64,000 nt of DNA from Bacteroidales bacterium (lineage in GTDB: Bacteria; Bacteroidota; Bacteroidia; Bacteroidales; WRLA01), in assembly GCA_963676415.1 (NCBI GenBank), contig OY781097.1, positions 1,160,240-1,224,239 on the forward strand, read 5' to 3'. Position numbers and translations under genes: made by a program. The first letter of the stretch is position 1; each line of letters begins with the position of its first letter. A model generated the notes under the pieces. It made no database searches and was not told the DNA's origin. It saw nothing but the letters and a program-made list of their open reading frames with translations. Positions 2,709 through 37,867 of the stretch are shown piece after piece.

Positions 2709-3781
2709 CCTCGGCTCCGCTCTCCTGCCTTAAATTGATGATTTCTATTCAGTGAAAGCTGCTCAGCCTCCTTATTAATAAATTGAGTTAACCCAAACGA
2801 AATGAAAGAAAAGAAGCACAATACCAAAACATTAATCAGGGCAACATCCTTTCTGCTGCTTATCGGATTTATGATGGGATTTCAGTTCAGGGCTATTACC
2901 CAGCCCGCTATTGTAGAAACAAATTTCAACTGGCAAAAATGCTTTGAAATCCCATATTTCAAAGGAGGCCTTGTTTCAGCAAATAATGGTTATTATTTAA
3001 TATCGGGAACCGATGGTTCTGACACTATGGTTAACAATTTCCATGGCGGTTCAGATATACTATTGGTACATACAGATTCACTTGGAAATATTTTATGGAA
3101 AAAATGCTATGGCGGGTCTGAAATAGATTATGGCCGGACGCTTATATCTTCCATGGATGGACATATTTTTTTGATAGGCCGCACTTCATCCGATGATGGG
3201 GATGTTCAAAGCCGCCAATGGGACGGGAGCCTGGCCTGGGTTGTAAAAATTGATCACCAGGGAGACATCATCTGGGAAAAAACTTTTGGTGTAGAAAAAG
3301 GGACAGGTTTTACCATTCGAAGCTTTCTGGCTTTACCGGATGGGGGTATTGCTGTTTCTTCGGTAATCCAAGGTAAAAGCGGGGATGTCAGCCAGTATTT
3401 TGGAGGCATTGATGTTTGGACTGTAAGGCTGGCTGCCCAAGGGGAGATGCTTTGGGAAAAAACTTACGGAAACAAAGGGCAATTGGATAATCTATTAAGT
3501 ATGGCTTATACCCATGATAGCACTATAATATGCGCAGGAGCAGCCAGTGTTGGAGGGGGAATGGTTGAATGTTCTTTGCCTTCATATGAAGTATATAATG
3601 CCTGGCTGTATGAAATAGACCTGCAGGGCAATATCCTCTGGCAATATTGTTATGGGGGCGAGAACGGCGATCTTCCTCATAGTATCATCCAATCTGACCA
3701 TGGCTATATCGCTGCAGCAAGTAGTGATTCCTGGGGTGGGGATATTGTTAACCAACATGTGTAGCGTCCTGATTTTGGTTG

Positions 3782-3829
3782 ACTCTTTTTTCTTCTTTCC
3801 GGGGATCCCCGGAAAGAAGAAAAAAGAGT
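3782..3829. repeat. Perfect 48-bp palindrome inside the IS, between the orfB stop and the IS end
   Basis: actcttttttcttctttccgggga|tccccggaaagaagaaaaaagagt. The two 24-nt arms are exact reverse complements with no loop. Confidence 0.9.
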
Positions 3830-3845
3830 TTGTTCGACAAATATA

Positions 3846-5140: not shown

Positions 5141-5922
5141 TTTAATCCTTGATTTAGTTGACTTCTAATTGTAATTCTGGTCAACCTATATCAGGACTAT
5201 ACAATGGCAGCAAAGACATTTGGCTTTTTGAAACAGATTTTAATGGCAATATACTTTGGAGCAATTGCCTCGGTGGATCTTATTATGATTATCCCAGTAA
5301 TATTTTCCCATTATCCGATGGTGGGTATATGGTGGTTGGATACAGCTCTTCTGTAGATGGGGACTTAGCCCCAACACAAACAAACTATAATAAAAAACTT
5401 TGGTTTATAAAAACTAACTACCAGGGCATTGGTCAATGGCAAAGGGTCATTTCATCACGAAAGGATCTGGACAATTGGTATTCCCCTTTTGTCTTGCAAA
5501 AAGACGACAATACTTATGTAGTAGCCCAGGAAATAAAGGCTGGCGGGCCGGATACCCGTTGCCCGGGAGCCACACCATCATCTGAAAACCCATATGTGTG
5601 GCTGTTTGAAGTAGAATTCACAGATCAATTTGTATCTGTAAACGAACTGCACGGCCAGGGCCTTAATGTAAGCCCCAACCCTGCCAAAGACTTAATGATG
5701 TTTGAGCTGCCTGCTATTGGGGAGCTGTGCGTTTATTCGGTTTCGGGGCATTTGCTGCACAAAGCGCACTGCCTGGCCGGAGATTATCATTACAATTGTG
5801 GCCATTTGAGCCCGGGGGTGTATTTCTACACTTTTATGACGGATGAGGCTTTGCTGCATGGGAAGGTGGTGGTGGAATAATTTCTGTCCATAATGCCCGA
5901 TCTCAGCGTTATTCTTGCCCTG

Positions 5923-5960
5923 AAAACATGGAGTCCCGTACGCACGGGACTCCATGTTTT
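5923..5960 (+). terminator. Rho-independent terminator after cargo paralogue 2
   Basis: aaaacatggagtcccgt-acgc-acgggactccatgtttt: a 15-bp stem followed by a T-run. Confidence 0.75.
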
Positions 5961-6032
5961 CAGTCCTGCGAATGCCTCGACCTCGAACATTCTGAACCAG
6001 AAATTTTAATTACAGACATGGATTTATTAATG

Positions 6033-13106: not shown

Positions 13107-13898
13107 CTAATACCACACAATACTCAACACTTTATCTTTGTATGGTATAACATGTTCAAAAATTTTTTGGTTTATACCAACATCGTTAATTCCATCAAAC
13201 CAATCAATGCACCATAATTCTTCTGTTCTTTTCCTACCTAAACCTGTATTAAAATATTTTCCTGCCAAGCTATCCTCCGGTACAACATTATTCCCATCAA
13301 TTATTTCCCAATATTTAAAATCTCTGCTACTCCATCTCCATATAATTCTATTATTCTCCATATAGACAATCGTTATCGGGTGGGTTCCTATATCAGAGAA
13401 ACGAATAGCACACGCAGTTAAACTAACCTTGTATTTCTTAGCCAAACTTTCAATCACTTGAAAATTAAATTTTCTGTATAACTCGCAATCAGGCCTAAAG
13501 CGACTCTCAGGCATTAAAAGGCAAGAAGCAAAAAAATCTGCTTCACGTTCAATTACCTGATGTTTGTTTTTATTATACCTTGATGGATGCGGTTTAATCA
13601 AACCAGCTTTTAAAGCAATTCTATGGCTGTCAATGAAGTAATGCCCAAGCTCATGGGCTAATGTAAAACGTCCTCTTTCTTTATTAGAAGTGTTTCCGAG
13701 AGCAGTATTTAGGTGTATGTAAAAGCCTTTATCATAAACTAAAGTTCCATCAAAAGCATTTCCATAATCATCATAAAACACAGGTAGCTCTTCAACCTCA
13801 GCAATTTTATTTAATGGAGTAATAGTTTCATCATGCTCAAGAGCTAGAAATTCTGCTAAATCTTTTATCTGGTTTCTTTTACGATTGTTTATCTTCAT
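13107..13898 (-). CDS. ImmA/IrrE-family (M78) zinc metallopeptidase with a ~110-aa C-terminal domain (CapP/IrrE-like architecture)
   Basis: FTLAHELGHYFIDSH (HEXXH) followed by EREADFFASCLLMP (E..A..FA..LLMP), the ImmA/IrrE signature. Its start overlaps the upstream ORF by 20 nt. Confidence 0.8.
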   Translation of the reverse strand: MKINNRKRNQIKDLAEFLALEHDETITPLNKIAEVEELPVFYDDYGNAFDGTLVYDKGFYIHLNTALGNTSNKERGRFTLAHELGHYFIDSHRIALKAGLIKPHPSRYNKNKHQVIEREADFFASCLLMPESRFRPDCELYRKFNFQVIESLAKKYKVSLTACAIRFSDIGTHPITIVYMENNRIIWRWSSRDFKYWEIIDGNNVVPEDSLAGKYFNTGLGRKRTEELWCIDWFDGINDVGINQKIFEHVIPYKDKVLSIVWY

Positions 13899-14220
13899 CT
13901 TTATGCTTGCTCTTCATTTTATCAAGAATTGATTGAGGTATTTCTTCACTACCTTTTCTTGCAGCCAACTTTATTTCACTAATATCTTGTTGTTCTTCTT
14001 CATCATGAAGCTTTATTACCTTACCTTTCATTTCAAAAGAACCACTAATGATTTCTTCAGGATTTATTCTTACATCTTTTAACTCAAAGTCGTAATCTTC
14101 ATACATTGATTCAAAAAGCTCTAACTCCTTATCTGTTCTTGGGTAAGTGTAGCCTGCAATTGCTAACAGTTCATCAAATCTATCAGCGTTAATGTCCATG
14201 TTTTTCTTTTTATTTGCCAT
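13879..14220 (-). CDS. Hypothetical highly charged/acidic 113-aa protein, middle gene of the triad
   Basis: ORF overlaps both neighbours (11 nt and 20 nt), implying translational coupling. I recognise no HTH or other motif. It has a Lys/Glu/Asp-rich C-terminus. Confidence 0.55.
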   Translation of the reverse strand: MANKKKNMDINADRFDELLAIAGYTYPRTDKELELFESMYEDYDFELKDVRINPEEIISGSFEMKGKVIKLHDEEEQQDISEIKLAARKGSEEIPQSILDKMKSKHKDEDKQS

Positions 14221-14875
14221 TGTACTGATTTAAAAAGTTATCGACTTGTTTATTGGCTTGTTCCTTATACTTCCTTATAGAACCGGGAACTAACCCTAAC
14301 TCATCTTGAAGTTTCTTACTTACAGGTCTAGGAATATTATTCCCCTCATGGGTGTATAACTTATACGTTAAATAAATGATTCTGTGCTTTTCTCCCAAAC
14401 CATTAAGGACTTCTTCTAAAACACTTAGTTGCTCTTTTAGTTCTTTTCTTTTGAAACTATCGACTGTTGAATTTTCAACGAAATCATCAAGAGTATAGAT
14501 AAGAGATAAATCAGTTTCCTTGTCAGGCTCGTGACATGTACCCTTATTTGTGTAATTTACAAGTTGTGTAAATGCAATTCTATTTAACCATCTTATAATC
14601 CCATTATCAATGTTTTTTGATTTAGATTTATCGTGGTCGTATTTAGGGTATTTCCAAACACGGGCAAATGTACAGTTTACAATATCCAACGCCACCGTAG
14701 ATGATAAATTCCAATTTCTACAATTAATCTCCGCAGTCTTTAATACTGCTTCGTCATAACGAAGGCAGAAAACACTAAAAGCAGCTTTTGCTTCTTCCAG
14801 ATATTCATCCCTCCAGCCAATATACTCAAGTAAATCAAGGCTATTAGCAGTTTTTATTTCTTCTGTAACTTCCAA
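14210..14875 (-). CDS. Sigma-70-family-like protein (region 2-like and region 4-like segments)
   Basis: ALDIVNCTFARVWKYP...IRWLNRIAFTQLVNY resembles sigma region 2. LNGLGEKHRIIYLTYKL...LQDELGLVPGSIRKYKEQANKQVDNFL resembles the region 4 HTH. The call is by eye only. Confidence 0.45.
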   Translation of the reverse strand: MEVTEEIKTANSLDLLEYIGWRDEYLEEAKAAFSVFCLRYDEAVLKTAEINCRNWNLSSTVALDIVNCTFARVWKYPKYDHDKSKSKNIDNGIIRWLNRIAFTQLVNYTNKGTCHEPDKETDLSLIYTLDDFVENSTVDSFKRKELKEQLSVLEEVLNGLGEKHRIIYLTYKLYTHEGNNIPRPVSKKLQDELGLVPGSIRKYKEQANKQVDNFLNQYNGK

Positions 14876-14898
14876 AATAGTCTTATTAATTAACTACC

Positions 14899-14919
14899 AA
14901 AAGCGTGAGTCACGCTTTT
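14899..14919. promoter_or_regulatory. Perfect 10-1-10 palindrome in the divergent control region (operator candidate)
   Basis: AAAAGCGTGA-G-TCACGCTTTT lies between the start at 14875 (minus) and the start at 14965 (plus). Because the genes are divergent, it cannot act as a terminator for either. Confidence 0.55.
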
Positions 14920-14964
14920 AGTATATAGGTAAAGAATCAAATTAAATAACAAAAATAAAAAATT

Positions 14965-15138
14965 ATGGCAACAAATCCACCGAAAGACGGAAGCAGAAAA
15001 GGAGCAGTTAGACAGCGTTCTCAGGTAAAAAATCCTAAAACAGGATTATGGACAAAGCGTGATAGTGAAACAGGTCGATTTCTTGATGTCAAGACATCGA
15101 GCGGTAAACCCTTTAAAGGAGTAAGAAAGGAAAAATAA
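14965..15138 (+). CDS. Unannotated 57-aa basic protein, first gene of the CBASS operon
   Basis: My translation: MATNPPKDGSRKGAVRQRSQVKNPKTGLWTKRDSETGRFLDVKTSSGKPFKGVRKEK*. It is below the 60-aa cutoff of the ORF track. Its stop lies 3 nt before the ATG at 15142. Confidence 0.5.
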   Translation: MATNPPKDGSRKGAVRQRSQVKNPKTGLWTKRDSETGRFLDVKTSSGKPFKGVRKEK

Positions 15139-15141
15139 TAT

Positions 15142-15756
15142 ATGAAGAACAATTTTTTTAATTATTTCAGGTCAAGTATCCTAGTCTCATTGATTGTGAT
15201 TTTTGGAATTGCATTGTATGTAGCCAAAACCCATTGGCAGTTATCAATTGCCATATCAGGTAGTGTTAGTATGTTGCTAGTACTTATATCTAATTATTTA
15301 TGGAAAATTAAGCCCTTTAAATGGTTGTTTTGGATTGATGATTTTTCAGGTAGGTATGAAGGTATTCTGAAATACAGCTATGTTGATGAGAATGGCAACC
15401 TGCAAACAGGCGAACGGAAGCATATAAAGATTATTAACCAAAATGGAAGTCGAATTTCCATTGCATCCTTCACATTAAAGAAAGATGGAGGTAGGTCTTC
15501 ACCATCGTATAGTCGAGGTTTGTTCGTAGAGCAAACTGAAGACGAACATCATTTTCGAATAATATATCATTATCTCAATGAAGGTAATCATCAACTTGGC
15601 TTTCATCCCCACTTTGGTACAGATGTATTAAAGCTAATAAAGCAAGGAAATGAAAAGGTTTTATCTGGTGGATACTACACAGATAGAAAACCACAAACAC
15701 GAGGGGAATATCATAATCTTAAATGGGTCAGCAATGACCTTAATCACGAATTTTAA
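15142..15756 (+). CDS. CBASS effector candidate: two N-terminal TM helices plus a beta-rich C-terminal domain (Cap15 / S-2TMbeta-like)
   Basis: TM1 ILVSLIVIFGIALYVA, TM2 LSIAISGSVSMLLVLISNYLW, then FSGRYEGILKYSYVDENG...RISIASFTL...HHFRIIYHYL alternating beta-strand pattern. It sits immediately upstream of a CD-NTase. Confidence 0.55.
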   Translation: MKNNFFNYFRSSILVSLIVIFGIALYVAKTHWQLSIAISGSVSMLLVLISNYLWKIKPFKWLFWIDDFSGRYEGILKYSYVDENGNLQTGERKHIKIINQNGSRISIASFTLKKDGGRSSPSYSRGLFVEQTEDEHHFRIIYHYLNEGNHQLGFHPHFGTDVLKLIKQGNEKVLSGGYYTDRKPQTRGEYHNLKWVSNDLNHEF

Positions 15757-15768
15757 TACAGAAATAAA

Positions 15769-16767
15769 ATGGCAGTCTTACATAAAGAATTTATAAAGTT
15801 TAACAAAGAAATAAAGCTTACTTCTTCAAGAAAAGAGAAGCTAAAAACAAGTCGTAAAGACATTAAGAAAAAAATTAGAAAATGGTTTAAAGACAATAAA
15901 CCGGATGAATTACAACCTAAATTTCATGGCCAGGGTTCTTTTGAAATGAACACAGGTGTAAATCCTATCCCTGAAAAAGATGGTGACACCACCTTATTGA
16001 AATTTGATTTGGATTTTGGAATCTACTTCATTGAAAAAGAAGACGAGGATAACAAGCAATCTATTGATACATGGCATAATTGGGTTTACAAAGCGGTTGA
16101 AGACCATACTAACAAGAAACCTGTTAGGAAAACAACATGTATTCGTGTCATATTTAGTGATGGGCATCATATTGATTTGCCAATTTACTACAAACTTGAA
16201 GATGTAATTGAACTTGCACATTGGTCAAAAAATTGGATTGAAAGTGACCCAAAAGAGTTTTATGAGTGGTTCAACAACTTAAAGAATGCTCAACTTGAAA
16301 GGATAGTTAGGTATCTTAAAGCATGGAAAAACTATCGGGAATTAAATAATACAAATTTGAAGCTCCCGAGTGGCTTTGAACTTACCATACTTGCTGCAAA
16401 CAATTATGTTGAAGATGATAATGACGATAAAGCCTTTAGAGAAATTGTTCGTAAAATAAACACGGAACTAAATAAAACTAATGGTTTCAAATGTTTGCGT
16501 CCAACAACACCAAAAGATGAGGATGTCTTTGCAGACTACTCTACAACAAGAAAAAACAACTTCCTTTCGACCTTAAAAAGCTTGCTAAACGATTTAGACA
16601 GAGCCAAAGATGAGAAAAACTTCAAAAAAGCTTCTGAGATTCTGCGTGACAATCAGTTTGGCGATAGATTCCCATTAGGTGCAGATAAGGACGAAGAAGA
16701 AAAAAGCAATAATCTTGGGAAAAGCCTTGGGGCAGCAGCAATTACACCAAAGCCTTATGGATATTAG
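15769..16767 (+). CDS. cGAS/DncV-like nucleotidyltransferase (CD-NTase, CBASS cyclase)
   Basis: N-terminal FIKFNKEIKLTSSRKEKLKTSRKDIKKKI helix. Active-site GQGSFEMNTGV ... KFDLDFGIYF (GS...DxD) and third acidic residue in GHHIDLPIYY. WIESDPKEFYEWF motif. Confidence 0.8.
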   Translation: MAVLHKEFIKFNKEIKLTSSRKEKLKTSRKDIKKKIRKWFKDNKPDELQPKFHGQGSFEMNTGVNPIPEKDGDTTLLKFDLDFGIYFIEKEDEDNKQSIDTWHNWVYKAVEDHTNKKPVRKTTCIRVIFSDGHHIDLPIYYKLEDVIELAHWSKNWIESDPKEFYEWFNNLKNAQLERIVRYLKAWKNYRELNNTNLKLPSGFELTILAANNYVEDDNDDKAFREIVRKINTELNKTNGFKCLRPTTPKDEDVFADYSTTRKNNFLSTLKSLLNDLDRAKDEKNFKKASEILRDNQFGDRFPLGADKDEEEKSNNLGKSLGAAAITPKPYGY

Positions 16768-17398
16768 AAAGCAAATTGAAGAAGTATTGAGACATTATTC
16801 GGGATTATCCTTTAACGAGAATAACAATTCGATTGATGGAGAACTGTTTATTTCAGAGGATGATTCCTATGATGTTTCAATACATCTTGAACCATATCCC
16901 AAACATTTTCCAAGAGTATTTGAAACAGGTGAACGTATCCCTCCAAAGGTTTCAAGACATATTTATTCGAATACTAAATCGTGTTGCCTTTCTACACTGG
17001 CAAAGGCTCAAATTCTGCTTAAAACTGAAATTAGTACTTTAAATCTATTCATAAAGGAAATAGTAGTGCCTTATTTTCAGAATAACTCATATTTTGAAAT
17101 TAATGGCAAATACAAGACTGATGAGTATGCACATGATAAGAGCGGAGTAATTGAAGGTTATAGGGATATACTTCAAACAAATAACGATTATTTAATAGCA
17201 AGTCTAATAAAAGAAAGAATAAAAGGAAAGAAGCTGCGCCTTCATGACTTGTGCTACTGCGGTAGTGCCCTATCAATGAAAAAGTGTTGTGATTACCAAC
17301 ATTACATATGTTATAAGAATTTCAGAAAAGTAGATATTAATGTTCTTATTAATGATATACCAATTTTTATTGATCATCTTAAAAAAACTCGTTCTTAA
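16757..17398 (+). CDS. E2-only ubiquitin-conjugating-like protein (Cap2-like, type II-short CBASS) with a C-terminal SEC-C-like zinc motif
   Basis: E2-like HIYSNTKSCCLS (compare HPN....G.ICL) preceded by YPKHFPRVFETGERIPP. C-terminal CYCGSALSMKKCC resembles the SEC-C motif. The ATG at 16757 overlaps the CD-NTase stop by 11 nt. The track start at 16679 would overlap by 89 nt. Confidence 0.6.
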   Translation: MDIRKQIEEVLRHYSGLSFNENNNSIDGELFISEDDSYDVSIHLEPYPKHFPRVFETGERIPPKVSRHIYSNTKSCCLSTLAKAQILLKTEISTLNLFIKEIVVPYFQNNSYFEINGKYKTDEYAHDKSGVIEGYRDILQTNNDYLIASLIKERIKGKKLRLHDLCYCGSALSMKKCCDYQHYICYKNFRKVDINVLINDIPIFIDHLKKTRS

Positions 17399-17552: not shown

Positions 17553-18743
17553 TTATTTAATCACGTTGAGTTCTTTCCCCACCTTAATAAAAGCATTGAT
17601 TGCTTTATCGAGATGAGCTACCTCATGTCCGGCAGAAAGCTGCACACGGATACGGGCCTGTCCTTTTGGCACCACAGGATAGTAGAAACCAATAACATAA
17701 ATGCCTTCATCGAGCAGTTTGGCGGCAAAATCCTGGCTCAGTTTGGCATCGTAGAGCATAATGGCACATATTGCTGATGCCGTGGGTTTGATATCGAAAC
17801 CGGCATCCTTCATTTTGCCCATGAAATAGTCGGTATTGCTGTGCAGTTTATCTTGCAGCTCGGTAGTTTCGTTCATCATATCAAACATACGGATACCGGC
17901 ATTTACCACTACAGGAGGAATGGAATTAGAGAAAAGATACGGGCGTGAGCGCTGGCGCAGCATTTCAATAATTTCTTTGCGGCCGGTAGTAAAACCGCCA
18001 ATAGCACCGCCAAAAGCTTTACCCAGCGTTCCGGTGATGATATCTACTTCGCCACGGATATCAAAAAGCTCGGTAACGCCACGGCCAGTTTTACCCACAA
18101 CTCCTGCTGAGTGGCACTCATCCACCATAATCATGGCATCGTATTTTTTGGCCAGCTCATTGATTTTGTCCATTGGGGCCACATTGCCGTCCATGGAGAA
18201 AACACCATCGGTAACGATCAGGCGGAAACGCTGTGCCTGTGCTTCTTTCAGCTTGGCTTCCAGATCTTCCATATTGGCATTTTCGTAGCGGTAACGCTGC
18301 GCTTTACAGAGGCGCACACCATCAATAATGGAAGCATGGTTGAGCGAATCGGAGATGATGGCATCTTCGGCGGTAAGGATGGGTTCAAAAACACCGCCAT
18401 TAGCATCAAAAGCCGCAGCATAAAGGATGGTGTCTTCAGTACCGAAGAATTCCGCAATTTTACGCTCCAGGGTTTTGTGCAGGTCTTGCGTACCGCAAAT
18501 AAAACGAACAGATGACATACCGTAGCCATGTGTATCAAGAGCATCTTTAGCCGCTTTGATCAGCTCGGGATGGTTGGAAAGGCCGAGATAGTTATTGGCA
18601 CAAAAGTTCAATACATCCTGACCGGTAGTAAGGGAAATATCCGCTTTTTGCGGAGAATTAATAATGCGTTCTTCTTTGTAGAGTCCTGCTTCACGAATGT
18701 CAGCAATCTCTTTCTGAAGGTGTTCTTTGATTTTACCGTACAT
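17553..18743 (-). CDS. kbl: 2-amino-3-ketobutyrate CoA ligase (glycine C-acetyltransferase)
   Basis: 396 aa. NYLGLSNHPELI, DGVFSMDG, and the PLP-lysine context ITGTLGKAFGG. Class-II aminotransferase of Kbl type. Confidence 0.9.
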   Translation of the reverse strand: MYGKIKEHLQKEIADIREAGLYKEERIINSPQKADISLTTGQDVLNFCANNYLGLSNHPELIKAAKDALDTHGYGMSSVRFICGTQDLHKTLERKIAEFFGTEDTILYAAAFDANGGVFEPILTAEDAIISDSLNHASIIDGVRLCKAQRYRYENANMEDLEAKLKEAQAQRFRLIVTDGVFSMDGNVAPMDKINELAKKYDAMIMVDECHSAGVVGKTGRGVTELFDIRGEVDIITGTLGKAFGGAIGGFTTGRKEIIEMLRQRSRPYLFSNSIPPVVVNAGIRMFDMMNETTELQDKLHSNTDYFMGKMKDAGFDIKPTASAICAIMLYDAKLSQDFAAKLLDEGIYVIGFYYPVVPKGQARIRVQLSAGHEVAHLDKAINAFIKVGKELNVIK

Positions 18744-18850
18744 AATTAATATTTTTTGGAAAGGAATACTTCGTTAAAATTCTTTGATGCAAATATAAAG
18801 GATTCGGGGGATTTGAGGATTGGAGAATCATGTTATTGTTTGGTCAAACA

Positions 18851-20880
18851 GACAAAGAATATGACCCCTTTGGGGTCAGCTCTTTAACTTATGTTTCTTG
18901 TTACAAATATTCAATCCCTCCGGGATTGTTTTGCTTTCGCAACCCGTTTTTCCCTGATGCGGTAATCCCATGCAATGAAGACATTAAAAGACCCCGAAGG
19001 GGTCATATAGCTATATTACGCATAGTCAACTTACTAAAACGACCCAAAAAGGGGTCGCATATCTAATATCAGCAGAAGCTTCGAGATTATTCTTCCGAAA
19101 GCTTTCGGAATTGAAACCTGTTACTTCGGCAAGCTCAGCACAGGCATTCCGTTCAGACGGGACTCCTTATTTTCAATACAAAAAATGCCTCGACTTTAGC
19201 TGAATTAACATTTTTGATGCACCTGCAAGCTCATGAACCTATGATTCTTGTTATAAACATTCAATCCCTCTGGGATTGTTTTGCTTTCGCAACCCGTTTA
19301 TTCCTGATGCGGTAATCTCATGCAATGCAGACATCAAAAGACCCTGAAGGGGTCATATAACTCTATATTAGGCATGGTCAACTTACCAAAAACGACCCCA
19401 AAAGGGGTCGCATATTAGTTTCTGAGCAAAATACAACTCAATCATCAAATAAGTATTCCCTCCTAAAATCAATATTATATTCCTCCAGAAAACGATGATA
19501 TTCTTCCTTGAAGCTTTTGTTCCGATGGTGTTCCTTTTGATTTTCTATATATTTATCAACCTTTGAAAGGTCTGAATGACTATACGAAAAAGCGCCAAAA
19601 CCCTCCTGCCATTCAAACTTAAACTTAGTAAAACCTTTTTCTTTGATAAATTTATTGGACGACTTCTTTACTTCACGAACGAGATCCGAAAGACAACAGC
19701 TTGGCTTCATACCTATTAGGATATGAATATGATCAGAAACACCATTAACCCTAATCAATTTTTGACCTTTGTTGGTGATTATACCTGTAATGTACTTATA
19801 CAATTCATTTTCCCAATGCGATTGTATTAATTTCTTTCTGCCTTTAACGGCAAAAACTATCTGAATATAAATTTGTGAGTAGGTGCTCATTTTTTTAGCT
19901 GAATTAACATTTCTGATGCACCTGCAAGGTAATAAATTAGAGCTAATTTCAAACATTTTTTTAGAATATGACCCCTTTGGGGTCAGCTCTTTAACTTATG
20001 TTTCTTGTTACAAATATTCAATCCCTCCGGGATTGTTTTGCTTTCGCAACCCGTTTTTCCCTGATGCGATAACCCCATGCAATGAAGACATTAAAAGACC
20101 CCGAAGGGGTCATATAACTATATTACGCATAGTCAACTTACTAGATACGACCCCAAAAGGGGTCGCATATCTAATGTCAGCCAAAACTTCGGGATTATTC
20201 TTCCGAAAGCTTTCGGAATTGAAGCCTGTTACTTTGGCAAGCTCAGCACAGGTATTCCGTTCAGACGGGACTCCTTATTTTCAATACAAAAAATGCCTCG
20301 ACTTTAGCTGAATTAACATTTTTGATGCACCTGCAAGCTCATGAACCTATATTTGTTGTTATAAATATTCAATCCCTCCGGGATTGTATTGCTTTCACAA
20401 ACCATTTTTCCTGATGCGGCAATCTCATGCAACGCAGATATCAAAAGACCCCGAAGGGGTCATATAACTATATTACGCATAGCCAACTTACCAAAAACGA
20501 CCCCAAAAGGGGTCGCATATCTAATATCAGCAGAAGCTTCGAGATTATTCTTCCGAAAGCTTTCGGAATTGAAACCTGTTACTTCGGCAAGCTCAGCACA
20601 GGCATTCCGTTCAGACGGGACTCCTTATTTTCAATACAAAAAATGCCTGGACTTTAGCTGAATTAACATTTTTGATGCACCTGCAAGCTCATGAACTTAT
20701 GTTTGTTGTTATAAATATTCAATCCCTCCGGGATTGTATTGCTTTCACAAACCATTTTTCCTGACGCGGCAATCTCATGCAACGCAGATATCAAAAGACC
20801 CCGAAGGGGTCATATAACTATATTAAGCATGGTCAACTTACCAAAAACGACCCCAAAAGGGGTCGCATATCTAATGTCAA
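18851..20880. repeat. Array of ~5 composite repeat units (~350-390 bp each, some partial) rich in GACCCC-N-GGGGTC and TTCCGAAAGCTTTCGGAA hairpins; REP/BIME-like
   Basis: Units start near 18851, 19241 (partial), 19967, 20346 and 20696. Each carries tgacccctttggggtca, gaccccgaaggggtc, cgacccc(a)aaaggggtcg and ttccgaaagctttcggaa (e.g. 18862-18878, 18990-19004, 19040-19057, 19093-19110). Confidence 0.85.
19438..19890 (-). CDS. IS200/IS605-like Y1 (HUH) transposase, REP-associated tyrosine transposase (RAYT)-like
   Basis: MSTYSQIYIQIVFAVKGR..., HUH motif SDHIHILIG, catalytic Tyr helix DKYIENQKEHH. It is embedded in the repeat array. ATG at 19890 is preferred because the track start at 19956 lies in repeat sequence. 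Confidence 0.8.
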   Translation of the reverse strand: MSTYSQIYIQIVFAVKGRKKLIQSHWENELYKYITGIITNKGQKLIRVNGVSDHIHILIGMKPSCCLSDLVREVKKSSNKFIKEKGFTKFKFEWQEGFGAFSYSHSDLSKVDKYIENQKEHHRNKSFKEEYHRFLEEYNIDFRREYLFDD

Positions 20881-20889
20881 TCACAAGCA

Positions 20890-23800
20890 CTACTTAATTT
20901 CCACCCTGTTCCCTTTCGAATGCGCTTCAAACTCAGGAGCATAGAGGCACTGGGCACTGGCTAAACCATTGCTAAAATTGCCTTTTTGAGCTGCAATCAG
21001 GGTATATTCAAACTGATGCATGCCTTTGCTCAAATAATAGACAAAGAAATTTGCTGTGGCATCTTTCATATCCAGATAATAGCCATTGCCACTGTTCCAG
21101 AAATAGCCTGAACGGCTGCTTTCCTGCTCCAGTCCGGCAGCATGATAATCGCGGATGTGCACATATTCCAGTTTACGGTCTGTTTCCACGCTCAAACGCA
21201 CAACAACACGGTCTCCGGGATTGATTGCCATTCCTTCCTCCAAAGGGGTCAGGTTGCCACTTGCTGATTCCAGGAAATAGTCTCTGTCAATACTCATCGG
21301 GCTTTCATGCGCTTCGGCTTTATCCAGTCCTACCATAAAACTCAGGTAGGCAGCGCCCCAGGAAGGGACTTTACCGCTGTTTGTGGCTTTAATCGCTTCA
21401 ATTTGCGGATGATCCACTTTTTGATGGCTCCATTGCTTCTTAAAATATCCTGTTCCGGCTTCTTTCTGAACCTTCAGTTCATGATAGGTTCCGTTCTCCT
21501 TCAGACTGACTTTTAGGTTATCCTCATCTTCGAGAAGTTTTGTGCCCTTCATCAAAAGCGCATAACAGGCATCAGCAGTATTGCTGTTGGACCTCCAGCT
21601 TCCGGTCTGCTTTTGTTTCAACAGCCAAACCTTCATTTGTTCCACTTCTTCGGGGAAAAGGCCATTTTTGGTGAAAAGCTCGATCACTTTCACCTGTTGG
21701 CCTACACCATCGGAATACCAGAACCAGCCTTGCGCATGGCGCCAGTACATGCCCATTTCATCGCTGTGAAGTGCGCGCTCGCGTATGCTGCGTACCAATT
21801 CGTTGGCGGTTTTGCTTTCGCCGATCATAAAGGCCCAGTTGGCAATTTTTGCCTGCATGTAAATACTGTACTCAAAACATTTTTCAAGCGTTCTGGCTTT
21901 AAAAAACTCATAAACCTCATCAAAACCATCTATATTTTTCCTTGGTGCATAGCCCAGTTTTTCGGCAGTTTGCTTCATCTCAAGCCATGCAATCACATTT
22001 GGCGAAGGCTGGTATTTTTCCGGATCAAAACTTTTGCGCTCCTTCATTTTCTGATAGTATCCGATCATTTCCCGGTCCAGATATGTCATGGCCGAACGGA
22101 TGATGTTGTTTGAGCGGACCGGCAGTTCCACATCCATTTCGCGCAGGCGCAAGAGTTTATCCATCACATTTATGGTATTCCATGCGGAGGATTCCATACC
22201 ATCAAACCAGCTGAAACCTCCATCACCATTCTGGCGATCGGCCAGTTTATTGAACCATGAATCCATTTTATACGAAACTGTATTCAAGTCAAATAAAGTA
22301 GCCAGACGCAGTTTACGTTCATGATCGTTTTCTGCTTCAAGAACCCAGGGTGTTTCCTTAAGAAGTACTGATTTAAGTTCTTCATTCTTCTGGAGCTGGC
22401 TTAAAAGAGCATCGGGCTGTAGGTTTTTCCATGTCTCAATTACCTGCTGTATGCGTGGTGATGAATGTGCGATATGCGAAGAAACCGCAGTGGCATAATA
22501 TGCATTGGCCAAACTAAAAACACTTTCATACGAAGGCTGGGCCAAAGCGGGCAATGCCTGAACAGCATACCAGGCAGGGTTTCCGGTAAACTCGAGGGTA
22601 AGCCTGAAATCTTCAACTTCCTGTTTCTTCAAAGAATTATACCATTTTTCCAGCTCAATTTCCTTTTCCTGGCCGGGATTTACATATATCGGCATACTTT
22701 CGGTCATGGCCACACGATTGGTCAAAACCGGGACAATTTTCTGTTCCCCGTCCTGATGCTTTTCGGTTTCGGCGAAAACGGCAATCTGCAAAGGCATTTC
22801 TGCCTCCGGAACTTTTAATTTCCATGCAGCAGCAGCCGAAGCATGGGCTTCCATATTCAGCTCCAAGGTTTTATTGCTTTCAAGAACCTCATTGGTGATG
22901 TCCTTCCCATTGACAGGGTTTACAATCTGTATCCATGCCTTTGCGACACAAGCCTCATCAGTTTTATTGCGGATTAATGCCGGGAGTTCCATTTCATCTC
23001 CTTCGCGGAGGAAACGTGGCAGGTTAGGAAAGACCATCAGTTCTTTTGTGGTGATGGCTTCTTTGCTTGTCATCGCTGTTTCGAGATCCTTTGTATAAGC
23101 CATCATCCTGAATTTCCATGCCGTTAATGCTTCGGGCGCGGTAAATTCGATGAGCACATCTCCTTTCTCATTGGTTCGGAGATCGGGATAGAAAAAGACT
23201 GTTTCGTTGAGGTTTGTGCGTGGTGCAGGCGGGGTTTTTTCTTTTGGCTGTTTCGGCTCAGGTGGCAAAGCTCCTCCTTTGTCATTCTCTTCATCAGCAG
23301 CCACATAAATTTCATCACCGGCCATTGAAGGTTGCACTCCTTCAAGCGCCATCGGCATCTCTTTCTCCAAAGATTTTGAACGGTAATAAACCCTCCTTCC
23401 TCCAAAATACAGATCCACAAAATTCAGTTTATCATAGCGCTGTTGCAAATAGGATTGATATCTATAATCTGATCCGTAAAGAACCACAGAAGAAGCCGTA
23501 CCAAAATCACTGAAAAAATCCCGGTTCAACCTATAGAATGGATATTGCACAAAATTCCAGCTATCGGTTGCAAACACATCCAGCGAACGGTCGTACATGC
23601 CCGCCAAAACCGAAGAAGCAAGCTTTTGGCCATCGGGACCGGAAATATGGAAACTCCAGCTTTCTTTGGCTCCGGGCTTCATCTTATCCCTGAACGTTAT
23701 CGTTTTGATATCCAGCTTTTTATTGCTCCACGGAATTTTTATCAGTTTATCATAAGTATAAATGCGGTTTTCACAGATAAACCAGGCGTGCAGGCTCACA

Positions 23801-26800
23801 TTCCCGCGCCACGATTCCTCAACTGTAAATTCCAGTTTTTTAACATCTGCATGAAGCTTCAGCTCATCTTTCTTGATGATTTTATCGTCTTGCCTGATTT
23901 CATATGCCATCAGCACATCCTTTTTCGAGCTTCCGGCAAAGAAAGTAAACACATCGCCCGGCTGGAGTTCCTTATCAGGATACACATAAAACCACGACCA
24001 ATCGGTATAGGGCATTTTGCGGCTTTTGGGGTTGATCAGCAGCACATCTGCCGAATCGCTTATGGTTTTTCCATCCACTTCTGATGAAACAATTATGCGG
24101 TACATGCCCGCTTTTTGTTTATCCAGTCCGGCATAGGTTTGCAGATCATCAGCCTTCCCGGTTTTTAATTCAGCTTCAAAAAGCTGCTTCTCTTTTATGA
24201 AATCCGGCTTTTCACCGCTCCTGTAAGCAATATCACTTTGATAACCCCCTTTTGCATCCCTGTAATTTGTTCTCCAGGAAGAAAACAATGACGGCCTTGC
24301 CAGCCCGTTTTCAGAAGCCAGGCTGTACAGCTCAATTTTAGCAGAAACCACCACAGATTCTTCATTCAAATTGATCGCACGAACATTTACTTTGCTCAGT
24401 TCATTGGTCAGCATGCTTTGAGGAGCATTTAGTTTCAGGAAGAATGGCTGATCTCCAATACTGATATTGATCTCATCGGAGCGGGTTTCTCCGGCGGGCG
24501 TTACAACATCTACAAAAACCCTGAACTGGTAATTGCGCCATGATGCTGTTTTAAATTCCGATTTTCGGGCGATAAAAGGAATTTCAAAATTCCCATCAGC
24601 GTCGGTCTGGCTTTCGCCGGATGCTATTTCTTCTGGCATATTTTGTTTCACATAAAACCAATAAAACGGTGACCATTCCACACGCTCCACCCTATACCGG
24701 ACCGTCGAGTTTTCTATCGGAAGCTGATTGAAGGTTTTTGCTTCTCCTTTCACCACAACTTCTTCTCCCAGTTTTAAAGTTGTTTTGGGTTGTTGCAGCG
24801 AAACTTCAAATGTTGGCCGTTTATATTCCTCAACCCGGATACTATGATAACCATATTCATTGCTCAGGCTCATGCTTCCGTTTAACAATCCTTCCGGGAT
24901 ATGGAAACTTCCGTCAACTGCACCATACTCATTGGTCACCAGCTCCTTTTCTCCTATCACTTTGTGATTTACATCATAAAAAATAATCTTCGTTTTGTGA
25001 TCGGTCAAAAGTTTAAAAGCATCATCTTCCTTCTGTGTGATGATTGCCTTAAAAAAGACCTGCTGGCCCGGTCGATAGATAGCACGATCAGTAAAAAACC
25101 AGCTTCTTGGTTTATCCACAGACTCATAGGAACGGGTTTTATACAGGTCCCTCTGTGATAGGAATGCATCATCACCTTTGTTCAGGAACACCTTACAGGA
25201 CGAACGGGAGCTCAGTTCCGCTTTCGCTTTTCCGGATGCATCCGAAAGACGCTTTACTGATTTTCTGGAACTGCCATAAACAGGTAAAAGCTCAATATCC
25301 ACATTTGGCAAAACCGCTCCACTTTTTCTGTTTCGGGTGATAATGGTATAATCATTTTCGTATTTCTCAGCAACAAAAGCCAGTTCCGTTACCCAGAAAT
25401 CAGTCCAGCTTGTGATTGCGTTCTTTGTAGGTGTCGGATTTTCCTCAGCGGAGGCAATCAAAACATAAAGTCCCTTTTGCAATTCGGGCAGGAAGGTTTT
25501 TAAAGTGACTTCCGCATAATCCTCAATCCCCTCTTTGCGGATATGCCACTTTTTTAAAGGTTCATCTTGAGATATTCTTTCAATATCCTTTCGGTCAAAA
25601 GAATAATTTCTGGTTTTGAGCAGGTTTTCAGGATCAACTTTATAAACAGTCAACCATAAAGTATCCAAATTGCGGCAATAAACCAATGCAGGCATTTCTT
25701 CCCCGGGCAGGCTGGCATACTCTGTTTCAAGGCCGAGGCTTTTTTCAAGCAGTTTTCCTTTCAAAACAGTGGCGTTATGAGCAGCGCGGCTCCCGGTATA
25801 ATCGCTTATCAATTCATTGCAAATTTTCATTGCGCGGATATTGTTTTGGTCAATGCCATCAAGGGATGTAACAGAAATTTCTGAAAGGGCACGGGCCAAT
25901 TGAAATTTCACCTCCGCAACATATTTATCTGCCCGCCACTCCTCAACCATAGTTTCTATAGCACTTAAGTAAAGGCTTCCTTGAACGGAACTGAATTTTT
26001 CCTGCACAAAATCTAAACGATGCAGGTCGGCATCCAGCAAAGCCGGAATGTTTTTTGATTGTTTATGGAACTCCAAAATATCTTGATAAATAGCTAATTG
26101 GGCCTGAACCGTATTTTGTTGGTTAAAATCAATTGCCAGAAATTCTTTAAGCGGTGCCATCAATTTTTCCGTATCCTTTACACCTGTCGGGCCGGGCACA
26201 CCAAAAGATGCGGAGAAATCCAGCAGGTCTATAACCTGAAACGCAACAATATCGTAAAGTGTCGGACGAAAAACATCCGAACTGTCTTCTTCCGTAAGCA
26301 AGTTGCGGTATTCGTCTGCCTGGCATTTCTGAAGCTCAGTAGCATTATCAAGTGCCTGAAGGCTTAACTTTTTCACCTGATCTGCAAATTGAGCGGCATT
26401 CCAGTACCGTAAATCCTCCGGGATTTCACCGCTCAGCCTCTGCTTCATCAGCTTATATGAATTGCTTTCTGCATAGGATTTGTACAAGCCGGCCAACATA
26501 ATATCATAGAGGCTCTTTGCTATTGGTCTTGCCTCTTTTACAGCATCTTTAACAAACTCAATCCCTTTGATAACCGGCTCTTCTTCATACATATCCCAAA
26601 GCTGGCATTTATAGGAGGCTGCCTTTATTTCCTGAGCGACCAGTTGCTGTTGTCGTGCCTGCGCATAGATACGGTCCACGATATCCATAGCAGATTGCGG
26701 CCTGCGCTTTTGCATCAGCTCGTCCACTTCTTTCCATTCTTTTGCAAAGGGTTTATCGCCTTCGGGGACATCCGTTGATGTAAGTCCAAAAAGCAGGATA

Positions 26801-26889
26801 CAGGAAACAAAAATCAGGGGCAGGGAAAATTTCTTCTTACTCATAATATGCTGTTTTTTTGATGATCGAAAATTACTCATTTTTTCCAT
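20890..26889 (-). CDS. Alpha-2-macroglobulin-family large protein (no thioester motif seen)
   Basis: ~2000 aa. Repeated MG-domain-like beta modules (e.g. YRPGQQVFFKAI..., GSFHIPEGLLNGSMSL) and a C-terminal alpha/alpha region NGDGGFSWFDG...TADACYALLMKG. The likely true start is MSKKKFSLPLIFVSC (26844), a lipoprotein-like signal. Confidence 0.75.
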   Translation of the reverse strand: MEKMSNFRSSKKQHIMSKKKFSLPLIFVSCILLFGLTSTDVPEGDKPFAKEWKEVDELMQKRRPQSAMDIVDRIYAQARQQQLVAQEIKAASYKCQLWDMYEEEPVIKGIEFVKDAVKEARPIAKSLYDIMLAGLYKSYAESNSYKLMKQRLSGEIPEDLRYWNAAQFADQVKKLSLQALDNATELQKCQADEYRNLLTEEDSSDVFRPTLYDIVAFQVIDLLDFSASFGVPGPTGVKDTEKLMAPLKEFLAIDFNQQNTVQAQLAIYQDILEFHKQSKNIPALLDADLHRLDFVQEKFSSVQGSLYLSAIETMVEEWRADKYVAEVKFQLARALSEISVTSLDGIDQNNIRAMKICNELISDYTGSRAAHNATVLKGKLLEKSLGLETEYASLPGEEMPALVYCRNLDTLWLTVYKVDPENLLKTRNYSFDRKDIERISQDEPLKKWHIRKEGIEDYAEVTLKTFLPELQKGLYVLIASAEENPTPTKNAITSWTDFWVTELAFVAEKYENDYTIITRNRKSGAVLPNVDIELLPVYGSSRKSVKRLSDASGKAKAELSSRSSCKVFLNKGDDAFLSQRDLYKTRSYESVDKPRSWFFTDRAIYRPGQQVFFKAIITQKEDDAFKLLTDHKTKIIFYDVNHKVIGEKELVTNEYGAVDGSFHIPEGLLNGSMSLSNEYGYHSIRVEEYKRPTFEVSLQQPKTTLKLGEEVVVKGEAKTFNQLPIENSTVRYRVERVEWSPFYWFYVKQNMPEEIASGESQTDADGNFEIPFIARKSEFKTASWRNYQFRVFVDVVTPAGETRSDEINISIGDQPFFLKLNAPQSMLTNELSKVNVRAINLNEESVVVSAKIELYSLASENGLARPSLFSSWRTNYRDAKGGYQSDIAYRSGEKPDFIKEKQLFEAELKTGKADDLQTYAGLDKQKAGMYRIIVSSEVDGKTISDSADVLLINPKSRKMPYTDWSWFYVYPDKELQPGDVFTFFAGSSKKDVLMAYEIRQDDKIIKKDELKLHADVKKLEFTVEESWRGNVSLHAWFICENRIYTYDKLIKIPWSNKKLDIKTITFRDKMKPGAKESWSFHISGPDGQKLASSVLAGMYDRSLDVFATDSWNFVQYPFYRLNRDFFSDFGTASSVVLYGSDYRYQSYLQQRYDKLNFVDLYFGGRRVYYRSKSLEKEMPMALEGVQPSMAGDEIYVAADEENDKGGALPPEPKQPKEKTPPAPRTNLNETVFFYPDLRTNEKGDVLIEFTAPEALTAWKFRMMAYTKDLETAMTSKEAITTKELMVFPNLPRFLREGDEMELPALIRNKTDEACVAKAWIQIVNPVNGKDITNEVLESNKTLELNMEAHASAAAAWKLKVPEAEMPLQIAVFAETEKHQDGEQKIVPVLTNRVAMTESMPIYVNPGQEKEIELEKWYNSLKKQEVEDFRLTLEFTGNPAWYAVQALPALAQPSYESVFSLANAYYATAVSSHIAHSSPRIQQVIETWKNLQPDALLSQLQKNEELKSVLLKETPWVLEAENDHERKLRLATLFDLNTVSYKMDSWFNKLADRQNGDGGFSWFDGMESSAWNTINVMDKLLRLREMDVELPVRSNNIIRSAMTYLDREMIGYYQKMKERKSFDPEKYQPSPNVIAWLEMKQTAEKLGYAPRKNIDGFDEVYEFFKARTLEKCFEYSIYMQAKIANWAFMIGESKTANELVRSIRERALHSDEMGMYWRHAQGWFWYSDGVGQQVKVIELFTKNGLFPEEVEQMKVWLLKQKQTGSWRSNSNTADACYALLMKGTKLLEDEDNLKVSLKENGTYHELKVQKEAGTGYFKKQWSHQKVDHPQIEAIKATNSGKVPSWGAAYLSFMVGLDKAEAHESPMSIDRDYFLESASGNLTPLEEGMAINPGDRVVVRLSVETDRKLEYVHIRDYHAAGLEQESSRSGYFWNSGNGYYLDMKDATANFFVYYLSKGMHQFEYTLIAAQKGNFSNGLASAQCLYAPEFEAHSKGNRVEIK

Positions 26890-34330: not shown

Positions 34331-34367
34331 CTACGTTTTTTTAAATTCAATAATTTAGCCTGATTAA

Positions 34368-34548
34368 TTCATGAAATTTCGTTATGGGCACATTCGACAA
34401 GCTCAGTGACCAAGCTCAAACCGCAATAAGAGAAAGAGAGTGCAGATTTTTGGCGCACAGGAATAACCGCAGTTATTTTGAGCACCAAAAAGATAGCATT
34501 CCTTTCTATTGCAGCGTTTTGGGTGAGTAATAGAATATTTTGTGAATT
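34368..34548 (+). repeat. ~180-bp dispersed repeat; inverted partner at 38269-38450
   Basis: ttcatgaaattt...cacattcgacaagctcagtgacca...aaaccgcaataa.agaaag...tttttggcgcacaggaata.ccg.ag.t.ttttgag.accaaaaagatagcatt..tttctattgcagcg.tttggg...aatattttgtgaat is matched by the reverse complement of 38269-38450. Confidence 0.8.
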
Positions 34549-35382
34549 ATTCAGGTTAGGCTTCATTCTTCGTATAATCAATGATATGACAGGAAGAAAG
34601 CTGTCATATTAAAACGAATATTATTTACTGGGGTTCATCTAGGAATTATTTGAAAAGCCCCATCAATATTAATGGACTCACTTCATTATACTTGTTTTCA
34701 TGTTTCGTTTATTTGAAATAAATACAAATATAGTAATAATATTAACAGGAGATAGTATCAGCAGACAGGTCAGACGTATCTTAATCAAGTCATCTTAATA
34801 GACCATAACAAAGCAAAACGTCACAGCCTTACGAGCTGAATTTTGTTGTGATTGGAACAACCTGATGCGCTGCATCAGGCTTTCATCCTGAAAATTAAAA
34901 AATGGCATAAACAAACGGACTCTTCAATAGGCTGAAAACTAAATCATTAGAAATAAAGGGAGCAAAACTCCGTTTTCAAGTGATCAAACAATATTAAGTT
35001 TGAAGGACTGACACATAATATATCAGTATATTCAATCCAAAGAAAGATAAAATAATTTTTCACTAATAACGCTAAATATCTTTTAACTAATGATTATGAA
35101 ACATATAGGAGTAGGTTTTGCAGTGAGTAGCACAGCATTTATGATACGTATTCCCTACGTAAACGGATCAGGTTCTTCCTTTTTGTTCAGATTTTCGTAA
35201 TTTGCACCTGATCATAATTTCTGACTATAATATATCAGCACAATTTATCGCCAGATTACATTCGTTCCCCGTTTTAAGCATCAATAAAAGGCCTTTATAG
35301 CGAAAAAAGGTTTTCTTGCAAGAGAAACGAGGATGATATGCAAGGTAAAAGAGTGTACGCATAAGTAACAGCTAAACAAAAA

Positions 35383-37597: not shown

Positions 37598-37867
37598 CTC
37601 TGTTTGCGGAGAATTTGATGGGGAAACTCGAAACGAATGCCGTTCTGCCCGCCGGGCAGGCGGGCTTTTATCAAAGAAATAAGTTACTCGGTGGAGGTTG
37701 AGAATATTTATAAAGTCCGCTAACATAGTTACGCTTGCCCGAAAAATGCTTATTTCGGCGATGCTCAGCACTGGCATTTACTCCAGTAAACTCTGCTTTT
37801 TCGGGCTGCGCAAGCCTCGTTATCGAACTTTCTAGCTCAGAAACACGACTTTTTATGGACAAGCACA

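Follow-up and report, generated by a model that had tools for sequence, protein, structure and literature searches.

IS608 TnpA and Escherichia coli TnpA-REP, both Y1/HUH enzymes, are established to act on single-stranded hairpin DNA. REPINs, the repeats that accompany REP (repetitive extragenic palindrome)-associated tyrosine transposases (RAYTs) in Pseudomonas and Enterobacteria, are reportedly short doublets with tens to hundreds of dispersed copies. The E. coli REPtron is found with a variable number of bacterial interspersed mosaic elements (BIMEs) flanking tnpA-REP, with the gene precisely lost and the BIMEs kept, or replaced by other genes, and transposition or recombination followed by local amplification has been proposed for it (Ton-Hoang et al., 2012; PMC3333891). 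In the classification of Y1 transposases by Quentin et al. (2018; BMC Genomics 19:475; PMC6006769), all members of class 2 (RAYT/TnpA-REP) have a Y---NP motif, while subclass 1.2 is defined by DH[IV]H, WQ and Y---Q--HH (YIKNQKEHH), a length of about 148 aa and a conserved C-terminal domain of about 30 aa. Subclass 1.2 is IS200-related and low-copy, is hosted by Cyanobacteria and Bacteroidetes, is set apart from IS200 proper since it is without the properties of an insertion sequence (IS), and is recorded as "REP: no", following an automatic REP search that demanded a 5' GT[AG]G tag. Here we describe a tandem array of hairpin repeats around a gene of this subclass, tnpA, in a 64-kb stretch of DNA (the window; contig OY781097.1, positions 1,160,240 to 1,224,239, of assembly GCA_963676415.1) from a Bacteroidales bacterium, and compare it with these systems. 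Coordinates are window positions unless a related locus, numbered with the prefix L, is named.

The interpretation that we favor, with moderate confidence, is that of a REPtron-like locus, in which a low-copy subclass 1.2 Y1/HUH enzyme lies inside a tandem array of hairpin modules typical of its family, with repeats that are amplified locally rather than dispersed, and on which the enzyme may act. The tnpA gene (19438–19893, minus strand) encodes 150 aa and matches Pfam Y1_Tnp (PF01797; E 6e-26) and the NCBIfam equivalog model for IS200/IS605 TnpA (NF033573; 67.1 bits, cut-off 55). A preliminary description, made from the sequence of this stretch, had recognized a 150-aa HUH/Y1 gene between repeat units by the motifs SDHIHIL and DKYIENQ, and the open reading frame (ORF) and the family matches agree with it. 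In an alignment of 15 homologues, D53-H54-I55-H56, W94-Q95, Y114, Q118, K119, H121 and H122 are invariant, and a C-terminal block (F..EY..FL...YLF) is conserved. The DHIH, EWQEG and YIENQKEHH motifs, the length and the conserved tail are those described for subclass 1.2 (about 148–150 aa), as are the low copy number and the host: Bacteroidota assemblies supply nearly all related loci, with rarely more than one locus each, and the best named relatives of the neighboring Kbl protein come from Bacteroidales or Bacteroidetes metagenome-assembled genomes. Homologues 72–77% identical are very numerous, across Flavobacterium, Pedobacter, Labilibaculum, Saprospiraceae, Chitinophagales and others. By its motifs, then, TnpA belongs to TnpA-Y1 subclass 1.2, and is related to IS200 TnpA but no ordinary IS200 transposase.

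The closest solved structures are IS608 TnpA (E 6e-7) and ISDra2 TnpA (E 3e-5), and TnpA has the YxxxQ motif of the IS200/IS608 HUH/Y1 enzymes (subclass 1.1); the PDB gave eight matches up to E = 1, none of them a TnpA-REP chain. The preliminary description had called the gene a RAYT. The HUH motif and the single catalytic tyrosine (Y114) are indeed present, but are common to IS200 TnpA too and so do not discriminate in favor of a RAYT, while the Y motif is YIENQKEHH. Since class 2 enzymes have Y---NP, including the class 2.2 protein of the E. coli REPtron, TnpA is not a RAYT by that definition; it also lies outside RAYT groups 1–5, it passes the IS200 model, and the hairpins around it lack a GT[AG]G tag. 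Several homologues carry the JGI label "REP element-mobilizing transposase RayT", on which the argument here does not draw. TnpA falls on the IS200 side of the family, but in a low-copy subclass rather than among ordinary multi-copy IS200 transposases.

The array occupies 18856–20879, between the stop codon of a gene for an A2M-like protein (20890–26889, minus strand, 1999 aa) and the start of kbl (glycine C-acetyltransferase; 17553–18743, minus strand). It is built from a 350-nt tandem unit, present in three full and two partial copies at a period of 350; the earlier account of about five units of 350–390 bp had placed the array correctly, with a longer unit and without the truncations. Tandem Repeats Finder reports a period of 350, 2.6 copies and 92% matches for 19985–20879. 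Each unit can be divided into an A module (the first ~192 nt) and a B segment (the other 158 nt). Three hairpins stand in the A module: one is CAATCCC-NNN-GGGATTG and two are GACCCC hairpins, of which hp2 has a 3-nt loop and is followed by ATAT, and hp3, CGACCCCAAAAGGGGTCG, is followed by CATAT. The B segment holds an 18-nt palindrome, TTCCGAAAGCTTTCGGAA, and a TTCCGT/ACGGGA hairpin. A third GACCCC hairpin, hp1 (ATATGACCCCTTTGGGGTCA), repeats the internal hairpin hp2 in inverted form, once per sub-array, at its head. The description of three GACCCC hairpins and a palindrome in every unit thus needs amendment: there are two such hairpins per unit alongside the CAATCCC/GGGATTG hairpin, hp1 is confined to the sub-array heads, and the palindrome is found in three units.

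On the plus strand, the array begins at its kbl-proximal end with hp1 copy 1 (18856–18879, AGAATATGACCCCTTTGGGGTCAG; stem-loop 18863–18877), which also closes the array in two close relatives, L081 and L082. The full unit U1 follows (18880–19229; A 18880–19071, B 19072–19229), with its CAATCCC hairpin at 18912–18928, hp2 at 18990–19004, hp3 at 19041–19056 (one mismatch) and the palindrome at 19093–19110. U2 is an A module alone (19230–19415), with hairpins at 19262–19278 (CAATCCC), 19340–19354 (hp2, one mismatch) and 19394–19409 (hp3); its homology to the unit ends 22 nt short of where tnpA stops, and this unique 22-nt spacer (19416–19437), given on the minus strand, runs from the stop codon to the A module, with the alignment diverging past GCATAT. 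Beyond tnpA come its 37-nt leader (TTTAGCTGAATTAACATTTcTGATGCACCTGCAAG, 19894–19930), a unique 32-nt spacer (GTAATAAATTAGAGCTAATTTCAAACATTTTT, 19931–19962) with a short AT-rich palindrome (AAATTAG/CTAATTT), which is absent in L081–L083, and hp1 copy 2 (19963–19986; stem-loop 19970–19984). Two further full units, U3 (19987–20337; A 19987–20179, B 20180–20337, palindrome 20201–20218) and U4 (20338–20687; A 20338–20529, B 20530–20687, palindrome 20551–20568), lead to a final A module, U5 (20688–20879), which finishes 10 nt short of the A2M-like gene's stop codon. In BLAST comparisons with U4 as query, the full copies are 93% (U1) and 91% (U3) identical, the first 192 nt recur as U5 (96%), the first 186 nt recur as U2 (90%), and the last 35 nt recur at 19894–19928 (97%), immediately before the tnpA ATG, as the preliminary description had seen when it noted that the ATG abuts a unit end. 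ORFs predicted within the repeats (for example 19883–20311, 142 aa) track the repeat period, are absent with the whole repeat region from the relative L083, and are considered spurious.

Read on the minus strand, which is the sense strand of tnpA, the order is A2M, [A-B-A-B-A-hp1], 32-nt spacer, 37 nt in common with B, tnpA, 22-nt spacer, [A-B-A-hp1], kbl. The first 37 nt of B on this strand are identical to the tnpA leader, which is likewise common to the plus-strand 3' end of all full units (97%). Upstream of the gene, the hp1 stem-loop (GGGGTCATAT) ends 79 nt 5' of the ATG, and downstream ATATGC-hp3 and ATAT-hp2 are found from +28, so that hairpins of inverted orientation stand on the two sides of tnpA, as in a REPtron, although the arrays as wholes are direct. 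The tnpA-bearing unit itself spans 701 bp (19230–19930), is bounded by CTCATGAAC and CACCTGCAAG, and has its first 186 and last 37 nt in common with the 350-nt units; no hairpin lies within its 37-nt tnpA-proximal end.

Within the window, ten GACCCC-N(2-8)-GGGGTC hairpins are seen against 0.02 expected, all of them inside 18863–20864, in one intergenic region; terminator-like hairpins number 24 in 18500–21200, against 2.2 expected, and the 350-nt unit folds as single-stranded DNA (ssDNA) with z = -4.0. Neither GACCCC hairpins nor matches to an A-module profile, a sequence profile iterated with nhmmer over related loci, occur in the other 62 kb of the window, and profile matches are confined to 18859–20877. 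With Rfam searched up to E = 1, no family matched 18500–21200. The unit end GCTGAATTAACATTTNTGATGCACCTGCAAG gave no matches in a scan of a genome-contig collection that does not include the source contig, and TTCAATCCCTCNGGGATTGTNTTGCTTTC gave none in a scan of metagenome contigs. No GTAG or GTGG stands at the foot of the hairpins in the array, whose flanks take the form ATAT(G)C-GACCCC...GGGGTC-G(C/A)ATAT. These short perfect stems, with neither GTAG nor bulge, are unlike E. coli REPs, and their organization in long direct-tandem composites (a 190-nt module in a 350-nt unit) differs from the alternating REP doublets of E. coli; the preliminary description was right to call such units unusual.

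A link between gene and repeats emerges from comparison across the phylum. Among 80 loci from 79 GTDB assemblies, encoding proteins 65–75% identical to TnpA, the A-module profile matches 76, and modules beside the gene often form tandem arrays. Arrays with periods of about 140–390 nt are found in many loci, including L012 (228 nt, 9 copies), L048 (387 nt), L001, L010, L011, L013 and L058. Perfect hairpins of the GAC-NNN type reach 4.1/kb in the 200 nt downstream of the gene and 2.6/kb in the 200 nt upstream, are concentrated within about 1 kb, and fall to 0–0.04/kb by 2.5–3 kb. Modules also occur in neighboring intergenic regions of L003, L006, L008, L075 and L089. The profile finds nothing in 74 kb of loci L083–L088, from the species of the window and a sister species, and 21 kb from a separate part of the L058 genome contain no modules. 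Hairpin repeats of this kind are thus specific companions of the subclass 1.2 gene family. The pairing of a transposase with flanking hairpins, as first described, is thus borne out for a Y1/HUH enzyme, though one that is not a RAYT, and whose repeats are not dispersed in the window. One homologue, at L041:2994–3453, has an in-frame stop at codon 10 (SGTFSQIYI*VV) and is possibly a pseudogene; it is still flanked by five GACCCC hairpins.

Two kinds of hairpin recur in these loci. Type I has the form ATATnC-GACCCC...GGGGTC-GnATAT; in type II, the stem is (T)GACCYN, GATCCC or AATCCC, and a conserved motif close to AYATGTTTATAGAAA comes after it. This motif often occurs as inverted pairs flanking a type I hairpin. 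In the window, hp3 is type I, and hp2, hp1 and the CAATCCC hairpins are type II, so that the ~190-nt A module carries one type I hairpin (ATATGC-GACCCC...GGGGTC-G) and two of type II, each beside a relative of ATGTTTATAGAAA. With up to two substitutions allowed, this last motif has 316 occurrences at up to 1.5 kb from the gene and 37 farther away. A sequence-guided alignment of distinct type I copies, 248 in all, shows the seven stem pairs to be 88–99% paired, with some compensatory change: in 35 copies, one position switches from C-G to T-A. Stem variants partly track TnpA clades (L034, L037 and L069, for example, cluster together and have GATGCC/GACTCC), with host phylogeny as a confounder. 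It is the A module that is conserved across Bacteroidota. The B segment is species-specific and, being unmatched in all 80 foreign loci, is rejected as part of the conserved system.

Strain variation at the site provides a second line of evidence. Homologues of Kbl that are 99% identical are found on four contigs, of which three (L081, L082 and L083) cover the region between the A2M-like gene and kbl. The spacer is 338 nt in L082, with one A module and hp1, and 689 nt in L081, with A-B-A and hp1; in L083, it consists of 929 nt of unrelated sequence without hairpins. No tnpA is present in the spacer of any of these, nor within 10 kb on either side of kbl in L081 and L082. The array is therefore polymorphic in unit number, and tnpA is dispensable at this site. 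The minimal element of L082 (about 220 nt) has inverted hairpins at its ends, ATATGC-GACCC...GGGTCG (an imperfect stem) and TGACCCC...GGGGTCA-TATTCT, and so resembles a REPIN in shape; as in REPIN–RAYT systems, a low-copy gene adjoins the repeats in the window, but there a single intergenic region holds the clustered copies, and the spacer of the doublet is about 170 nt long and holds two further hairpins. The variation mirrors that of the E. coli REPtron, which is likewise a single Y1 gene bordered by a variable number of hairpin repeats, known with the gene lost and the repeats kept, or replaced by unrelated genes: here two relatives hold repeats without the gene, and the region is replaced in a third. 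Local amplification of repeats, as we read it here, is also thought to occur in E. coli (Ton-Hoang et al., 2012). Loci of the sister species (Kbl 90% identical; L085–L088) were considered as an empty-site comparison, and were ruled out by their different synteny at kbl.

The gene family does not behave as a proliferating IS. The 90% identity cluster of the window TnpA has one member, the next homologue being 77% identical; no assembly appears with many copies among the 80 loci; and one identical Flavobacterium homologue, listed in 375 blocks, has the same upstream context through hsdM in all 24 contigs read, one of them with a different left flank. A single-member cluster, the lack of a multi-copy assembly and this constant context together argue that the family is not such an element; rather, it behaves as a stable low-copy gene, in line with Quentin et al. 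(2018). A phage vehicle was rejected, as IMG/VR holds only 22–34% identical relatives.

These observations bear on the first alternative, namely that the locus is an ordinary IS200-type IS of about 701 bp (19230–19930) in tandem with 350-bp non-autonomous derivatives resembling miniature inverted-repeat transposable elements (MITEs), the array having arisen by insertion of the element beside its own end. Like IS200/IS608, the locus has a tnpA unit of about 700 bp with hairpins near one end, and both ends of this unit are common to the 350-nt units, as with an IS and its MITE; the protein passes the IS200/IS605 equivalog cut-off, with IS608 and ISDra2 TnpA as its nearest structures. Head-to-tail duplicates of tnpA, moreover, are found at L058:1983–3456 (period 1011), in the sister species, and at L072:2843–4031 (period 723), with hairpin modules separating the copies. 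We nonetheless consider this explanation unlikely. In addition to the low copy number and constant context just described, the family shows neither the near-identical multi-copy dispersal of IS200/IS608 nor a pair of left and right ends conserved between genomes; the ends of the tnpA unit differ from genome to genome, and modules have no set order or orientation relative to tnpA. Unlike IS200/IS608, the window gene has tandem repeats on both sides, and close relatives keep these at the same site in its absence; the absence of IS properties is what parted subclass 1.2 from IS200 proper (Quentin et al., 2018).

A second alternative, which we regard as improbable, treats the array as a passive tandem repeat of terminator hairpins, resized by slippage or unequal crossing-over, with the Y1 gene as an inactive passenger or otherwise employed. 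A2M, tnpA and kbl are co-oriented, and on their sense strand a scan for terminator-like structures (a stem of at least 5 pairs and a T-rich tail) picks out five type I copies; in three of the five a T-run directly follows the stem (for example, GCGACCCCTTTTGGGGTCGTTTTTGG). The single A module, A-B-A and the window array could be interconverted by recombination between direct repeats, and U1/U3 and U4/U5 form mosaic pairs, which suggest gene conversion. This explanation does not, however, account for a conserved hairpin and motif accompanying one gene family at 76 of 80 loci in several Bacteroidota classes, with almost none 3 kb away, nor for stem variants that partly track TnpA clades. The invariant catalytic residues, in a family that is about 70% identical across the phylum, also argue for an active, constrained enzyme.

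The remaining alternative, a true RAYT/REPIN system in which a domesticated single-copy transposase mobilizes genome-wide GACCCC doublets in trans from this locus as its REPtron, has in its favor the low copy number of the family, the inverted hairpins around the gene, the REPIN-like ends of the L082 element, the modules kept in relatives with no tnpA within 10 kb, and those in neighboring intergenic regions of five loci, but is very unlikely given YIENQ in place of Y---NP, the lack of a GT[AG]G tag, the PDB search that returned no TnpA-REP chain, the absence of modules from the other 62 kb of the window and from 21 kb of the L058 genome, and the near-zero hairpin density 2.5–3 kb from the gene across the 80 loci.

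Under the REPtron-like interpretation, a mechanism can be proposed by analogy with IS608 TnpA and E. coli TnpA-REP. TnpA would bind the hairpins on transiently single-stranded DNA, as those enzymes do, and would cut and rejoin DNA beside them. Strand transfer, together with ordinary recombination between the direct repeats, would then add or remove whole units locally, since all units carry the same sites. The expected outcome is arrays that grow, shrink and are able to lose tnpA, instead of a genome-wide REP population.

Several points weigh against this interpretation. Homologous recombination between direct A repeats, with no Y1 activity, would be enough to produce all the differences among L081, L082 and L083 from a window-like ancestor, so that change may have run in either direction. 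Module order and orientation relative to tnpA vary between genomes; nhmmer profile matches fall on both strands, the hairpins being palindromic, so orientation is not assignable from the profile. No guide or cleavage tetranucleotide, and no asymmetric tag, is callable beside the type I hairpin, as its flanks are nearly mirror images (G-N-A-T...), and IS608-style guide and cleavage pairing, applied by eye to the minimal element of L082, gave nothing convincing. The contact between TnpA and the hairpins is proposed from their association in sequence, as opposed to biochemical or population evidence. The source genome may hold a multi-copy 701-bp tnpA unit or a dispersed hairpin population beyond the window. 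Lastly, the sole systematic survey found lists subclass 1.2 as being without REPs (Quentin et al., 2018). The CGACCCC-type modules of the window gene and of 76 of the 80 loci contradict that entry and leave membership in the subclass unaffected; these hairpins are without the GT[AG]G tag that the survey's search demanded, which may be why they went unreported. No other paper describing an association between subclass 1.2 and hairpins was found within the literature collection searched.

Given the five terminator-like type I copies on the sense strand, the array is probably also a terminator or insulator of transcription between A2M, tnpA and kbl. The B segment, by comparison with the A module, gives the impression of a secondary passenger. 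The 37 nt at its start are those of the tnpA leader, and its interior, the only part of the unit to do so, resembles other small repeats of the genome, with which it has the motifs TTCCGAAAGCTTTCGGAA, GCTCAGCA and GGGACTCC in common; the 350-nt unit may therefore combine an A module with a tnpA cassette that has had its gene replaced.

These other repeats belong to different families. One intergenic family is represented by 37858–38094 and 61034–61257 (89–96% identical over about 235 nt), with a further site at 37750–37778 and a perfect 20-bp hairpin, CTGAAAACATGGAGTCCCGT/ACGGGACTCCATGTTTTCAG, at 5920–5963; related pieces occur in L081 (11208–11428) and L082 (18341–18422). The palindrome TTCCGAAAGCTTTCGGAA likewise has one further window site, at 38010, beyond its three units. 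These are probably the palindromic elements that the preliminary description saw littering the intergenic regions, and of which it took tnpA to be the likely driver. As the GACCCC copies are all in one intergenic region, the gene is not shown to drive those other elements, and no dispersed population of its repeats, of the kind that E. coli REPs form, is seen in the 64 kb. The window also contains long direct repeats (87–94% identical) at 45402–45701 and 57264–57563, 46086–46319 and 57942–58175, 2388–2687 and 5560–5859, and 62641–62940 and 63379–63678, some of which overlap 187-aa ORFs (45388–45951 and 57250–57813) beside two giant genes (~1900–2000 aa), as well as an inverted repeat of 195 nt (34364–34558 and 38260–38454, 86%).

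The surroundings of kbl vary in other respects. Across kbl from the array, the window carries a cyclic oligonucleotide-based antiphage signaling system (CBASS) island at 13107–17398, comprising capP (13107–13898, minus strand), a 2TM effector (15142–15756), a cyclase (15769–16767) and an E2-like protein (16679–17398). L081 and L082 are without it, and kbl there directly precedes a gene of 129 or 136 aa, ferritin and the ATP synthase operon; kbl is thus strain-variable on both sides, and among the relatives compared, CBASS and tnpA occur together only in the strain of the window. An IS66-family element (TnpB_IS66 and DDE_Tnp_IS66) lies beside the A2M-like gene at L081:947–3074, in this one close relative only, which is further evidence of a variable neighborhood. 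In the sister species, a 147-nt indel immediately after the kbl stop codon (L085/L087:11194–11345, compared with L086:11194) has MITE-like terminal inverted similarity, GAGTTCGTCTATAAAG and CTTTATAGAGCAAACTC, and is unrelated to the hairpin modules.

A separate lead concerns type I restriction–modification (R-M) operons, in which the subclass 1.2 gene is strongly enriched. HsdR-, HsdM- or RhuM/Bro-like neighbors are found at 15 of the 80 related loci (L001–L003, L028, L033, L036, L039, L047, L048, L053, L055, L057, L061, L075 and L078), and also at L089–L096. The identical Flavobacterium allele lies, in 24 of 24 contigs read, in the order hsdR, Bro-N, RhuM, Y1_Tnp and hsdM, followed by hsdS where the contig extends, and the hsdM–hsdS spacer of this operon is filled by hairpin arrays of ~2.3 and ~4 units in L089 and L090. 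Several loci have the sequence TAATG, in which the upstream gene's stop codon and the ATG of tnpA overlap. In L047, the 142 nt before the tnpA start, which form the 3' end of an hsdR-like gene, are repeated about 245 nt downstream of tnpA (2852–2994 and 3698–3838, 89%); it looks as if a copy of the end of the target gene came in along with the cassette of gene and hairpins, or is part of that cassette.

For the window alone, the implications are modest: one variable intergenic region, and a probable stack of terminators between the A2M-like gene, tnpA and kbl. More tentatively, and as a possibility that we rate below the REPtron-like interpretation of the locus itself, subclass 1.2 Y1 enzymes and CGACCCC-type modules may constitute an unrecognized, phylum-wide two-part system: a third partnership between Y1 enzymes and hairpins, beside IS200/IS605 and RAYT–REP, in which repeats would multiply into local tandem arrays beside a stable low-copy gene. 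If so, the enrichment in R-M operons would point to a role at the level of the host, such as array-size-dependent control of operon transcription or defense-linked processing of ssDNA, rather than to selfish spread. For a subclass that the survey set apart as having neither IS ends nor REPs, a conserved DNA partner supplies candidate substrates: the near-invariant CGACCCC hairpin, the second hairpin with its ATGTTTATAGAAA-type motif, and arrays that change in size and are able to lose the gene. The REPtron idea would thereby be extended to a clade on the IS200 side of the Y1 family, and to the Bacteroidota. Repeats that are associated with a Y1 gene and stay local, instead of colonizing the genome, would also bear on the origin of REP populations.

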